64,000 nt of DNA from an uncultured Candidatus Binatia bacterium (GTDB lineage: Bacteria > Desulfobacterota > Binatia > Bin18). This document shows positions 20,457 to 32,474 of the stretch, piece after piece; positions within the stretch are counted from its first letter, which is position 1; each line of letters begins with the position of its first letter. The DNA lies in assembly GCA_965214605.1 (NCBI GenBank), contig OZ243961.1:928001-992000 (forward strand), in the 5' to 3' direction. The notes under the pieces were generated by a model. The model did no database searches. It saw nothing but the letters and a program-made list of their open reading frames with translations, and was not told the DNA's origin. A program made the translations under genes and the position numbers.

Positions 20457-20809
20457 TGGTGGAGGCGGCGGGAATCGAACCCGCGTCCGAGAGTAGTCCC
20501 CCTAAAGCATCTACATGCGTAGCTCGTATTTTGATCTCGCCTCAGTGTCTCCCACGAGCAGGATGCGCTAAGACCAGCCAGAAAAATTGTCGGGCTGACA
20601 TCTCCTGGTACGATGCCGACCGTATCCCGATTTGCGACGCCTTAGCCGGCCCTACGGGCACGGACCGGTAAGACGCTGGCCACACTAGGCAGCCAGGGCG
20701 TATTCAGAATCGTCTGCAGTTAAATTGCAGCCTGCCTGTTTTACGGGAAAGACAGAACCCCGGCACGCAGCTTTGGCTTTCCAGCCCCCGTCGAAACCAA
20801 GTCGCCCCC
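20457..20809 (-). ncRNA. ssrA: tmRNA; tag reading frame ADDSEYALAA* (20717-20685)
   Basis: 5' GGGGGCGAC...TTCGACG; 3' T-arm GGTTCGATTCCCGCCGCCTCCACCA; resume codon after TAACT; adjacent to smpB. Confidence 0.97.
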
Positions 20810-30522: not shown

Positions 30523-31380
30523 TCAGTCGCTGTCATGGGCCGACGGCACCGGCACGTCGTAGCTCCAGATCAGGGTCAGAACCGTCTCGCCCCAGGGCAG
30601 CAAGGCCACGTCCGATTCCGGGGCGGTGTCGCCGGGCAAGTCCGGATGGCGGCGACGCGCTTCCGTCGTGGCCAGAGCGATTAACTCGTCGGCACTTGGC
30701 GTCGCATCACCGTTGGCCGGTAACTCCAACTCAGAGGCCCGCAGGGTAACAGCCGTTTTGACCTGCATAGAGGTTGAGCTACGAGACGGAGGACTCGGCG
30801 GCACCTCGGGCTCGACCGGGATCTCTTCCAGCGGCTCATCAACCGGGATTTCTTCTATCACCCTATCGTCTGTCGCCGCCACCGGTGGGCTGTCCTGCTC
30901 ATCGCTCCTGTCCGCCGGGAGATCCGGCGACGGCGTCGGGCTGACGGCCGGTTCCTCGGCTGTCGAGGCTCGGCCCCGCCCACGGGTTCCGCGTCGTCGT
31001 CCGCCCCGCCCGCCACGTGGCGCGTCGTTCGCCTCCTGTTCATCGTTCTCAGCCGCCCGCTTTGAGCGACGCGCCCGCTGCTCACCCGGCATAAGGCCAT
31101 GGGAAAAATACTGGAGGTCATCGGTCGAGGCGGCGTCGAGCACCTCATCGACGAGATCGGCCGCTTTTTCCTCGGTATAGGCCTCGACATCAAAGTCGGC
31201 AAAGACGGTAAAATGGGACAGGCTTCCGGTCAGGTCAGCCGCGGCCGGAACTGTCTCATGTTCGAAATAGCGGAGCCGTCTGTGGGAGACGGACGTCAGT
31301 AGGGAAGCCGCAGTCCGGTCCGTTTCTTCCAGGGAGGACCCACGACCTTCGAAAAGCGCAACAGCATGAAAGTATGGCAT
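30523..31380 (-). CDS. Hypothetical protein with RGG box and acidic/Pro-rich linker
   Basis: 285-aa ORF: folded-looking N- and C-terminal regions joined by RGGRGGRRRGTRGRGR and an E/P/D-rich segment. Confidence 0.7.
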   Translation of the reverse strand: MPYFHAVALFEGRGSSLEETDRTAASLLTSVSHRRLRYFEHETVPAAADLTGSLSHFTVFADFDVEAYTEEKAADLVDEVLDAASTDDLQYFSHGLMPGEQRARRSKRAAENDEQEANDAPRGGRGGRRRGTRGRGRASTAEEPAVSPTPSPDLPADRSDEQDSPPVAATDDRVIEEIPVDEPLEEIPVEPEVPPSPPSRSSTSMQVKTAVTLRASELELPANGDATPSADELIALATTEARRRHPDLPGDTAPESDVALLPWGETVLTLIWSYDVPVPSAHDSD

Positions 31381-31588
31381 AGATCAAGGCACACAATATA
31401 ACGTCGACCGATTTTACGCAAGAGTAAGAAATCCGACGTACGGGTCGGGCACAGCTAGACGCAGGGCGTGTTTCGGCGTATAGTGGCACCAAAAGCTATT
31501 CGGTCAGGTAGACACAGGCCTTAACACTTCGCTTCTTGCAATACGGCAGGATGGAGTGGACCGAGCCTCGGGCCGGTATTGGCGATCG

Positions 31589-31826
31589 GTTCCTGGTAGA
31601 GCGGTTTCTGGTCCCGCAGCGGGTGCGCCAAGAAAGGAGGTGGTCCAAAGATGTGTAGTTCTACGGTGATCTGTGAGGTGGTGGCCTCCTAGGCCGACGA
31701 CCCAAAATCTTTTGATGTGGAGTAGTCGCTTGGGGGGACCCAGGCACTACCGGAATCCCGACAGCCCGCGCCTCATCACCCGCGGGACAATCCTACATCG
31801 GATTATAACACTGTCGGGGTTTTTTT
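31589..31826 (+). ncRNA. Candidate structured RNA with extended anti-16S (SD) segment and a 13-aa ORF (31651-31692)
   Basis: Long interrupted stem pairs 31589-31622 with 31726-31755 and encloses AGAAAGGAGGTGGTCCA and ORF MCSSTVICEVVAS; followed by a branched terminator. Confidence 0.6.
31757..31826 (+). terminator. Branched intrinsic terminator-like structure
   Basis: CCCGACAG/CTGTCGGG stem enclosing CCCGCG/CGCGGG and AATCC/GGATT hairpins, followed by T7. Confidence 0.7.
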
Positions 31827-31853
31827 GGCCTCACACACGGGGCGAGGAGGCAA

Positions 31854-32474
31854 ATGGCAGATTCTGGCGCGGGAAACACGTCAATTACCCAAGCCGTGAC
31901 CGCTCTCAGCCACCGAATTTTTGACTTGGCAACCGAGACCTGGCAACAGCTGAAGGACCACGACGAGGTCAGCCGGGAATTGCTCAAGGATCCGTTTAGC
32001 CAACAGGCCAAAGAACACACCGCCACGGCTGAATTATTGCTGCTGCTGCTCCACCTCAGCGATCGGGTGGCGGCGGCCACATTTCACAAAGCACTCCCGG
32101 CCGCCCACGTCCAGACCGTACGTACGACGTTTATCTCGGCCGTAGTCGGGGCCGCCCTTCCGGCCTTCATCCAACTCGTCTGCGCCGAACAAGACTCGGC
32201 CGAACAGGCCGAAACACAGGCCGACTTCGTCCACCTGTATAATGTCCGGGCGGTGCAGTACGGGCTGTTTGGACTCGAGGGCCAGGGAGCCGCCGACGAG
32301 TACAGGGCCCTGATCAAGTTAGGCGCCATTCGGGTCTCAGAAGCCCTCGAATGTTTGGACAACGAGGCGATCCTCCGCCATAGCGTGGACGCGATCGTGC
32401 TGAGCCGCCAGGCGCTCACCGCCGAAGTGCCGCTGCAACAAACAATTGCCCGGCTCCTCGTTGCAACACACTGA
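31854..32474 (+). CDS. Hypothetical helical protein
   Basis: GAGGAGG RBS; 206-aa ORF. Confidence 0.7.
   Translation: MADSGAGNTSITQAVTALSHRIFDLATETWQQLKDHDEVSRELLKDPFSQQAKEHTATAELLLLLLHLSDRVAAATFHKALPAAHVQTVRTTFISAVVGAALPAFIQLVCAEQDSAEQAETQADFVHLYNVRAVQYGLFGLEGQGAADEYRALIKLGAIRVSEALECLDNEAILRHSVDAIVLSRQALTAEVPLQQTIARLLVATH

Follow-up and report, generated by a model that had tools for sequence, protein, structure and literature searches.

A putative stand-alone RNA with an extended Shine-Dalgarno sequence and a 13-codon reading frame in an uncultured Candidatus Binatia bacterium: a probable lineage-specific member of the rreB/rreR kind of small mRNA

The window analysed here is a stretch of 64,000 nucleotides (nt) of DNA from an uncultured Candidatus Binatia bacterium (GenBank assembly GCA_965214605.1, contig OZ243961.1, positions 928,001 to 992,000). 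In a 473-nt gap between a minus-strand open reading frame (ORF) of 285 amino acids (aa) and a plus-strand ORF of 206 aa lies the locus of a structured RNA, in which a 17-nt complement of the 3' tail of 16S ribosomal RNA (rRNA), that is, an extended Shine-Dalgarno (SD) sequence, precedes a 13-codon ORF (Table 1). This small ORF (sORF), the GAGGTGG run inside it (31675-31681) and the CCTCCT at its 3' end had been pointed out in an initial annotation made without database searches, and all three proved to be conserved. The sORF, the terminator and the sub-threshold Rfam match described below are all on the plus strand; the opposite strand folds at -84.1 kcal/mol with a z-score of -1.26, which is not better than the plus strand.

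Table 1. Features of the extended-SD RNA locus and its flanking ORFs (positions in the window; the two strands of a helix are separated by a slash).
Feature	Position	Strand	Observation or basis
Divergent 285-aa ORF	30523-31380	-	without Pfam or NCBIfam family
Promoter-like site (TAGACG, 17 nt, TATAGT)	31456-31484	+	consensus scan; predicted RNA 5' end ~31491
Whole RNA, ~335 nt	~31491-31826	+	conserved over its whole length in relatives of the family and order; T-run taken as 3' end, 5' end approximate
Structured 5' domain (H1-H6), specific to this lineage	31500-31617	+	covariation; no Rfam match there at E <= 10
H1	31500-05/31559-64	+	RNAalifold
H2	31506-09/31518-21	+	RNAalifold
H3	31525-29/31554-58	+	RNAalifold
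H4	31534-39/31546-51	+	RNAalifold
H5	31565-77/31585-97	+	RNAalifold
H6	31601-04/31614-17	+	RNAalifold
Hairpin H7, presenting the extended SD	31622-31646	+	GGTGCGCC pairs with GGTGGTCC; 9-nt loop AAGAAAGGA (31630-31638)
17-nt complement of the 16S rRNA 3' tail	31631-31647	+	AGAAAGGAGGTGGTCCA; 16/17 Watson-Crick and one G-U against own 16S rRNA
13-codon ORF	31651-31692	+	MCSSTVICEVVAS; ATG 3 nt past the 17-mer, stop TAG
Hairpins H8 (CGGT/GCCG) and H9 (G.GAGGT with GCCTCC)	31664-31696	+	100% and 98.2% of cells paired
Internal SD-like block	31673-31681	+	GTGAGGTGG; (nearly) invariant in the family
Anti-SD-like CCTCCT	31685-31690	+	base-paired to the internal SD-like block in H9; stop codon at 3' foot
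3' hairpin H10	31721-31751	+	13 pairs, 3 with compensatory changes (e.g. G-C 15 / A-U 4)
Third anti-SD-complementary G-run, tip of H10	31729-31738	+	conserved; mean binding -9.5 kcal/mol (site 31730)
Three-way-junction intrinsic terminator	31754-31826	+	H11 31754-64/31811-21, H12 31765-70/31781-86, H13 31788-91/31802-05; T7 31820-31826
206-aa ORF	31854-32474	+	begins 27 nt 3' of the RNA; without Pfam or NCBIfam family

The genome has a single 16S rRNA gene, the 3' end of which reads ...GCGGCTGGATCACCTCCTTTCTAAG. A match of the 17-mer at 16 positions to the usual bacterial 16S end, with a G-U pair at the remaining one, had been claimed initially, and it holds against the organism's own 16S rRNA, the sole exception being G31643 opposite a U. 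When the nine contigs of the genome (4.37 Mb) were scanned on both strands, there was one 17/17 complement, which is the antisense of the 16S rRNA gene itself, and one 16/17 complement, which is the site at 31631-31647, followed by two sites of 15/17 and 11 of 14/17; the number of sites of at least 16/17 expected by chance in 8.7 million positions is estimated here as about 0.03. The next-best complement, outside the window at C1:1244088 on the minus strand (15/17, AGAAAGGAGGACATCCA), stands directly before TTG GCA and may be the unusually long SD of an ordinary gene. Within the RNA, the 17-mer has the strongest predicted binding to the anti-SD sequence (mean -14.7 kcal/mol in the window's family, site 31632), and the extended SD is kept in all 30 of the related loci that were fetched. 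Since the 17-mer is the reverse complement of the end of the 16S rRNA gene, and seven other complements of at least 8 nt to 16S rRNA occur in the RNA, the locus might be thought a chance match or the functionless, decayed antisense fragment of such a gene. However, the seven complements are at chance level (6.4 in shuffled sequences), no extended likeness of the RNA to the 16S rRNA gene was found on either strand, and conservation in dozens of genomes, together with covariation, an ORF and a terminator, refutes this explanation, to which only a vanishing probability is assigned.

Boundaries of 31589-31826 had been given initially, but alignment of the upstream flank carried conservation and covarying helices to about 31500, so that the RNA starts some 100 nt further upstream than 31589, at about 31491. 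A promoter consensus scan of the region gave two sites against 0.3 expected, and the TAnnnT -10-like block of the site in Table 1 (TATAGT, 31479-31484) occupies the same place in 19 aligned relatives, where it is followed by a variable stretch and then by the conserved RNA. Because conservation extends upstream to this -10-like box, the RNA is taken to span roughly 335 nt.

Homologues with covariation had been named by the initial annotation as the check on its proposal, and both were found. BLAST of 31560-31850 against 41 genomes (the organism's own and 40 relatives) gave matches in 31; they are full-length in 21 of 24 genomes of the same family and in the one genome of the same order, and at class level they are confined to the SD-plus-ORF core. 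In each of the 30 fetched loci, GGAGGTGRTCY is followed 1-4 nt on by an in-frame ATG, GTG or TTG and an ORF of 13-15 aa with a C-terminus like ..TV.CEVVAS; some class-level relatives (L020, L027 and L029, for example) have GTG directly after ..TCCA. A wider scan of one genome per GTDB species for AGGAGGTGRTCY, then 15-40 nt, then GTGAGGTGG, found at least 118 stretches. Among the matches listed, 98 have actinobacterial labels and 20 have other labels (14 acidobacterial-type, three Rokubacteria/Methylomirabilia, and one each of Thermodesulfobacteriota, Heliobacteriaceae and Lujinxingiaceae), counts that are not frequencies and that include metagenome-assembled genomes (MAGs), the labels of which can be wrong. 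An ORF of 11-17 aa is present in 116 of the 118 stretches listed, the exceptions being L044 and L146, and the peptides closest to that of the window among them are those of L144, L103 and L128 (MC.PTV.CEVV.S). The peptide MSSYHSEVAAT of the Heliobacteriaceae-labelled MAG (L051) is nearly equal to MSIRHSEVAAT of a Blastocatellia MAG (L110), as is its core, and the Firmicutes label of the former may have arisen from wrong binning and not from the presence of the element in another phylum. Within the window's own phylum, an exact pattern was found in three of 121 sampled genomes (the organism's own, one of the same family and one of the same class) and in none of 117 outside the class, which is a lower bound.

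The consensus fold predicted by RNAalifold from 19 non-redundant family sequences has 13 helices (H1-H13) with 86 pairs, of which 24 have compensatory changes, and 96.3% of alignment cells are paired. None of 500 shuffles matched the observed covariation or the observed number of covarying pairs, and sliding the partners by one to three columns lowered pairing to 35-52%; the shuffle control overstates significance among related sequences, whereas the slid control retains their relatedness. Compensatory changes are located in H1-H5 (2, 2, 3, 4 and 3 pairs changed on both sides), in H10, and in H11, H12 and H13 (2, 2 and 3 pairs in the 19 relatives); the three-way-junction terminator with its run of seven T, which had been noticed at first sight, thus covaries in all three of its helices. 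The invariant H6 and the helices H7-H9, which have one-sided changes or none, are placed near the SD and the ORF by the model; the data are compatible with them but do not prove them. All six pairs of H7 are formed in 100% of cells of the 19 sequences, with changes between G-C and G-U only, none of them compensatory; this fold would leave the 5' half of the 17-mer exposed and its 3' half paired. For H8 and H9, one-sided changes mean that conservation fits the structure without proving it.

The long interrupted stem that was initially drawn around the whole unit is rejected. It pairs in 78% of cells as compared with 96.3% for the RNAalifold consensus of the same 19 sequences, four pairs of its TTCC/GGAA and GGTAG/CTACC segments are broken in 11-13 of the 19, and local covarying hairpins fit better. 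Two further segments of that stem, AGCGG/TCGCT and CTGG/CCAG, are invariant and hence uninformative, and as drawn they cross each other. In actinobacterial and acidobacterial versions of the RNA, the 3' half of the SD is paired with ORF codons -3 and -2, unlike H7, which uses an upstream strand. In these versions, the R of GGTGRTCY faces its partner as G:C in 72 cases, A:U in 11, G:U in three and another combination in 16 (n = 102, among the matches listed), and the A:U cases, being mostly from one genus group, represent few independent events. Both layouts are alike in leaving the 5' half of the long SD exposed and pairing its 3' half.

An SD of such length before a small ORF has a published precedent. 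The passages of Hahn et al. 2017 (PMC5711450) drawn on here describe rreB of Bradyrhizobium as a 165-nt mRNA in which a 14-codon ORF started by GTG is preceded by 17 nt that complement the 16S rRNA 3' end perfectly. It is found mainly with ribosomes and co-sediments with the 30S subunit, to which its binding depends on the 5' extension of the SD; its translation is weak, owing to the long SD and the GTG, and putting a stop in place of the start codon stabilizes the mRNA (PMC5711450). Its 5' part of the long SD is proposed to be single-stranded, as a seed for the 30S subunit, and its 3' part to lie in a hairpin (PMC5711450). Analogues, such as rreR with 18 codons, are reported in these passages only from four alpha-proteobacterial orders, Caulobacterales among them; the peptides form families that are conserved at clade level, RreB and RreR lack structure as synthetic peptides, and the function of rreB is called 'elusive' (PMC5711450). 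A full-text search for 'rreB' together with 'Shine-Dalgarno' found Hahn et al. 2017 alone, subscription journals being outside its coverage; within the same coverage, its title is cited by three other papers, presumably of the same laboratory.

As far as those passages go, the RNA of the window resembles rreB and rreR in having a 16-17-nt complement of the 16S tail directly upstream of an sORF (14-18 codons in theirs, 13 in the window), in the exposed 5' part and hairpin-bound 3' part of the SD, and in a clade-specific peptide. Whereas rreB and rreR are stand-alone small transcripts with their own promoter and terminator, such a transcript is predicted for the window from the conserved -10-like box, the covarying terminator and the inconstant downstream gene. 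It has the complement of at least 16 nt to its own 16S rRNA before a small ORF that is typical of the rre kind, and an sORF that is conserved in its clade, with 13-15 aa in 30 of 30 loci as compared with about 14-18 codons. It differs in its length of about 335 nt as compared with 165 nt for rreB, in an additional covarying 5' domain, in an ATG that stands 3 nt past the complement, whereas the last paired base in rreB and rreR is the G of the GTG start, in an unrelated peptide, and in a host that is not an alpha-proteobacterium and so falls outside the published range. With actinobacterial, acidobacterial, Rokubacteria/Methylomirabilia and other labels among its carriers, the core architecture has a wider range than published.

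Conservation of the reading frame was assessed by counting the start codons found from -2 to +11 nt relative to the end of the SD, the scan pattern having fixed neither start nor stop. Over the 135 unique cores among the matches listed, there are 135 start codons in frame with GAG and 13 and 20 in the other two frames; an in-frame start is present in 134 of the cores, and the first in-frame stop is exactly five codons past GAG in 132, the stops in the other frames being scattered. The retention of a frame with a fixed stop implies that translation, or a frame that ribosomes can read to a fixed end, is under selection. Within the frame, in the 127 unique ORFs among the matches listed, codon -3 is NGG or GTG (R, W, G or V), codon -1 is NGT (R in 65, C in 40, S in 16 and G in 6, the last two letters being preset by the scan pattern) and codon +4 is NNC (R, S, A, G or T), and the N-terminal codons are free in kind and number, with changes of N-terminal length in whole codons only. 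Because the conserved letters are not those that conserve amino acids, selection appears from the codon pattern to act on the RNA and not on the peptide.

An ordinary micropeptide gene, with the 13-aa peptide (C-terminus TVxCEVVAS) as its product and a long SD that only secures or adjusts how much of it is made, is a quite unlikely description of the locus. The C-terminus is indeed kept in the 30 related loci, with a few synonymous changes in class-level relatives (L027, for example, has GTA for GTG and TCG for TCC), and clade-conserved peptide families are also on record in the cited passages (PMC5711450). However, purifying selection on residues would produce the reverse of the observed conservation of NGG, NGT and NNC, the N-terminal half varies freely in both length and sequence, and a peptide gene has no need of the 140 nt of covarying structure on its 5' side and 130 nt on its 3' side; the RreB and RreR peptides, for their part, lack structure, and over-production had no phenotype according to those passages (PMC5711450).

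The GAGGTGG of the internal SD-like block starts 15 nt before the TAG stop codon, with a predicted anti-SD binding of -10.0 kcal/mol (site 31675), and the distance from its GAGG to the last sense codon is 8 nt, as compared with 7-10 nt from GGAGG to the start codons of such RNAs. The generality of this second element was examined in metagenome contigs selected by a pattern that covers the alpha-type start (GAAAGGAGGTGATCCA and then GTG) and leaves the ORF free. At least 120 loci were found, from which, four ORFs being cut by contig ends and one being 184 aa long, 106 unique ORFs of 12-31 aa were obtained. Among the matches listed, these form a VSHC.. group (62), a 14-aa ..KRCHLAGIAR group (14), an 18-aa VSRxxLE.. 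group (12), the window's type (7) and others (11); the 14-aa and 18-aa types are suspected to be rreB and rreR, labels given by length and start codon only. The commonest metagenome type, VSHC(L/H)..W(I/N)L(A)S.(E/G)V... of 20-25 aa (62 of the 106 listed), has a Trp that looks invariant, and its diversity seems to exceed by far that of the two types to which the 2017 paper gave names.

In all five groups of ORFs among the matches listed, binding to the 16S tail has its minimum in the 9-mers that start 14-17 nt before the stop, with group means at the minimum of -3.8 to -10.1 kcal/mol as compared with about -0.3 to -1.5 kcal/mol at adjacent positions. An element of -6 kcal/mol or lower is present there in 64 of the 106 (35/62 of the VSHC group, 1/14 of the 14-aa group, 12/12 of the 18-aa group, 7/7 of the window's type and 9/11 of the others), as compared with 223 of 1200 long ORFs from the window's genome, the profile of which is flat at -1.7 to -1.8 kcal/mol. 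These results suggest that a second SD-like element is frequent, and suitably placed near the stop, in most of the extended-SD sORF types examined, with the reservation that the five groups possibly share ancestry and are not independent. The third conserved run, at the tip of H10, is GGGAGGA in most of the 19 relatives and GGGGGGA in the window, which brings the potential binding sites for the 16S tail in the RNA to three (31632, 31675 and 31730).

Three such sites could also serve a different purpose, in which the RNA is a trans-acting, non-coding base-pairing small RNA (sRNA) or sponge, with the G-rich blocks (31631-47, 31675-81 and 31729-38) as seeds that pair with C-rich or anti-SD-like sequences of other RNAs, and the ORF is tolerated but irrelevant. 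Two of the three conserved sites are in or near loops, the conservation of wobble positions together with the freedom of amino-acid-determining positions indicates selection at the level of RNA, and an actinobacterial relative, discussed below, is catalogued and discussed as an sRNA in the portions of the literature consulted. This alternative is judged unlikely, though, because the frame is kept beyond chance (a start in 134 and a stop at +5 codons in 132 of the 135 cores listed) and because the main block complements the whole single-stranded tail of 16S rRNA, which is more than an mRNA target needs; nor was a target found, no search aimed at one having been made. A dual function, which would blur both the sRNA or sponge and the micropeptide alternatives, is possible.

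At curated thresholds, a search of the whole window with Rfam found nothing at the locus, and to that extent the initial statement that it belongs to no known RNA family stands; it does not survive a permissive scan, in which Ms_IGR-5 (RF02471) matched 31626-31829 over model positions 1-184 of 184 at a sub-threshold 37.1 bits (E 7.7e-7 for the region and 1.2e-6 for the genome), nor the publication of the kind in 2017. This is the sole RF02471 match in the genome, and none of 14 control genomes has one. In the literature consulted, Ms_IGR-5 is a validated, uncharacterized and NAD-capped sRNA of M. smegmatis that is catalogued as non-coding; no literature that links it to rre or notes an ORF in it was found by full-text search, the coverage of which excludes subscription journals. 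The likeness lies in the order of a long SD (..AAGGAGGTGGTCC), a short ORF, GTGAGGTGG, a stop exactly five codons past GAG, a structured 3' part and a terminator, and the Rfam model aligns its own terminator onto that of the window. Among the differences, the helix of the Rfam consensus between the 3' half of the SD and the 3' part of the ORF (codons -3 and -2 by the reading made here) is replaced in the window by H7, and the Rfam model, which begins 13 positions before the first paired stretch in the SD, has no 5' domain. When 15 of the matches listed from the wider scan were tested, the RF02471 cut-off was passed by four of five actinobacterial loci and by none of ten others. The locus probably belongs to the kind published in 2017 with rreB and rreR as a distant relative of Ms_IGR-5, homology with which is likely; whether the likeness is inherited or convergent matters little for function.

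Another catalogued sRNA, CC2171 of Caulobacter (RF01867), scores 16.1 bits at the locus as compared with a cut-off of 75 (E 0.44). Its consensus opens with the GAAAGGAGGTGATCCA block followed by GTG, and the VSHC.. type of sORF shares its starting codons; however, alignment with the window is limited to the SD block and a 3' hairpin, the rest being mostly gaps.

The exact RNA sequence is present in none of the RNA sequencing runs in which it was sought, and twelve of these hold 7-15% of its sampled words. Four of the twelve were aligned to the locus, and two metatranscriptomes, one labelled marine and the other sponge and each of a separate study, yielded contigs of 315 and 358 nt at depths of 164 and 292, which are about 92% identical to 31524-31830 and 31507-31830 and run 11-16 nt past 31830; one of them has an adapter-like stretch of 22 letters at its 31507 side. 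In a soil-labelled RNA run, the conserved core only was covered. Because such short, deep contigs coincide with the predicted RNA, they are a weak hint that it may be an abundant, discrete transcript in close relatives.

Searches of Pfam and NCBIfam assigned no family to the flanking ORFs of 285, 206 and 130 aa. The position of the 206-aa gene 27 nt downstream on the same strand, with a short ORF and then a terminator before it, is the classical layout of an attenuator, and the initial annotation had offered a cis-acting, ribosome-dependent leader of this gene as one of its readings. Yet the gene follows the RNA in only six of 30 related loci, and in two loci of the same genus (L007 and L008) it is absent and the RNA with its terminator is kept, with the 130-aa ORF and holA on the opposite strand as next genes. 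Since the gene is so rarely kept with the RNA, no competing anti-terminator pairing emerged from the consensus fold of the 19 aligned sequences, and rreB and the relatives under other phylum labels are stand-alone (rreB according to the passages cited), a role as leader is disfavoured and considered very improbable. The 206-aa ORF itself resembles a genus-level insertion between the RNA and the block of the 130-aa ORF and holA. The divergent 285-aa ORF, which outside the genus is recognizable only in a conserved part of about 80-110 aa, might be functionally linked with the RNA, to which it is adjacent in 23 of 30 related loci. About 11 kb away, at 20457-20809 on the minus strand, is a full-length gene for transfer-messenger RNA (tmRNA; RF00023, 193.8 bits, model positions 1-374), the only Rfam family above its curated threshold in the 64-kb window.

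Taken together, the locus probably encodes a stand-alone small mRNA with an extended SD, enlarged in a lineage-specific way, that binds the 30S subunit by its long SD and is poorly translated. Both a ribosome-binding RNA and a tightly gated micropeptide mRNA had been among the initial proposals; each agrees with the experiments on rreB in the passages cited (PMC5711450) and is compatible with the conservation of start codon, frame and stop codon. The mechanism considered likeliest is capture of 30S subunits or ribosomes where translation starts, and perhaps where it stops too. The predicted loop of H7 displays the 5' half of the 17-mer, conserved in sequence, and this half may serve as a landing pad for the 30S subunit. 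By analogy with rreB, the subunit would then bind through the long helix of SD and anti-SD, open the stem and bring the ATG into the P site. Translation of the 13-codon frame would follow, probably inefficiently because the long helix slows release from the start, as was shown for rreB. At the other end of the frame, GAGGTGG lies 8 nt before the last sense codon, which is the usual distance from an SD to the P site, so that it can re-pair with the anti-SD and could hold a terminating or recycling ribosome. Both the geometry and its conservation suggest that selection acts on the RNA and on how it engages ribosomes, not on the peptide. The best guess at its purpose is that the stability and occupancy of the RNA may report or buffer the pool of free 30S subunits.

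Several observations weigh against this interpretation. Zero compensatory pairs support H7, H8 and H9, the changes in which are one-sided only, and single-sequence folding is unexceptional (z-scores of -1.34 for 31585-31830 and -1.47 for 31491-31828), so that the support for structure comes from covariation. The 37.1 bits of the Ms_IGR-5 match fall short of the gathering cut-off of 45, and both blocks shared with Ms_IGR-5 complement the universal 16S tail, so that the likeness could be convergent rather than inherited. Conservation of the peptide C-terminus ..V.CEVVAS within the window's class leaves room for a possible peptide function there. In the 14-aa ..KRCHLAGIAR type, the second SD-like element is weak (1/14 among the matches listed), so that a 'second SD' is not universal in the kind. 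The RNA-library contigs, coming from relatives that are about 92% identical, show neither strand nor ends nor level, and may reflect carry-over of DNA. Over-expression of rreB had no effect on growth, and its authors argue, in the passages cited, that simple sequestration of ribosomes is not its main role (PMC5711450).

A broader and much more tentative proposal, which may well prove wrong, is that Ms_IGR-5, the acidobacterial and Rokubacteria/Methylomirabilia versions, the RNA of this lineage and most alpha-proteobacterial rre types form a cross-phylum class of RNAs that hold the ribosome at two sites. The full-length complement of the 16S tail would capture the 30S subunit at the start, the second block, one P-site distance ahead of the stop, would re-capture the anti-SD of the terminating ribosome, and the ORF would serve only to carry the ribosome from one anchor to the other. 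6S RNA and Ms1 sequester RNA polymerase by mimicking promoter DNA. The analogy with them is one of principle, in that an abundant small RNA mimics the natural nucleic-acid ligand of a core machine, which in the case of the window RNA would be a start site for the 30S subunit; there is no relation in sequence or structure, and simple titration is what the authors of the rreB work argue against in the passages cited. If the two-site proposal were true, what the RNA senses or buffers would be free 30S subunits or else the integrity and maturity of the 16S rRNA 3' end, which would make it a ribosomal counterpart of 6S RNA and Ms1, and the lineage-specific 5' domain would be its input module.

For the biology of these RNAs, the locus joins Ms_IGR-5 to the rre kind and widens the range of that kind from alpha-proteobacteria to Actinomycetota, Acidobacteriota, Rokubacteria/Methylomirabilia and other labels. 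It suggests that not a peptide but a geometry is conserved, in which a long SD and a start codon open a frame of 11-17 codons and an SD-like block is followed exactly five codons on by the stop. The hypothesis that arises from it, testable in tractable hosts such as M. smegmatis, Streptomyces, Bradyrhizobium or Caulobacter, is that each end of the frame retains the ribosome. Should this prove right, it would be a widespread means for an RNA to read or buffer the state of the translation machinery; otherwise, the locus is still a well-defined, unannotated gene for a structured RNA that annotation pipelines overlook at current Rfam thresholds.

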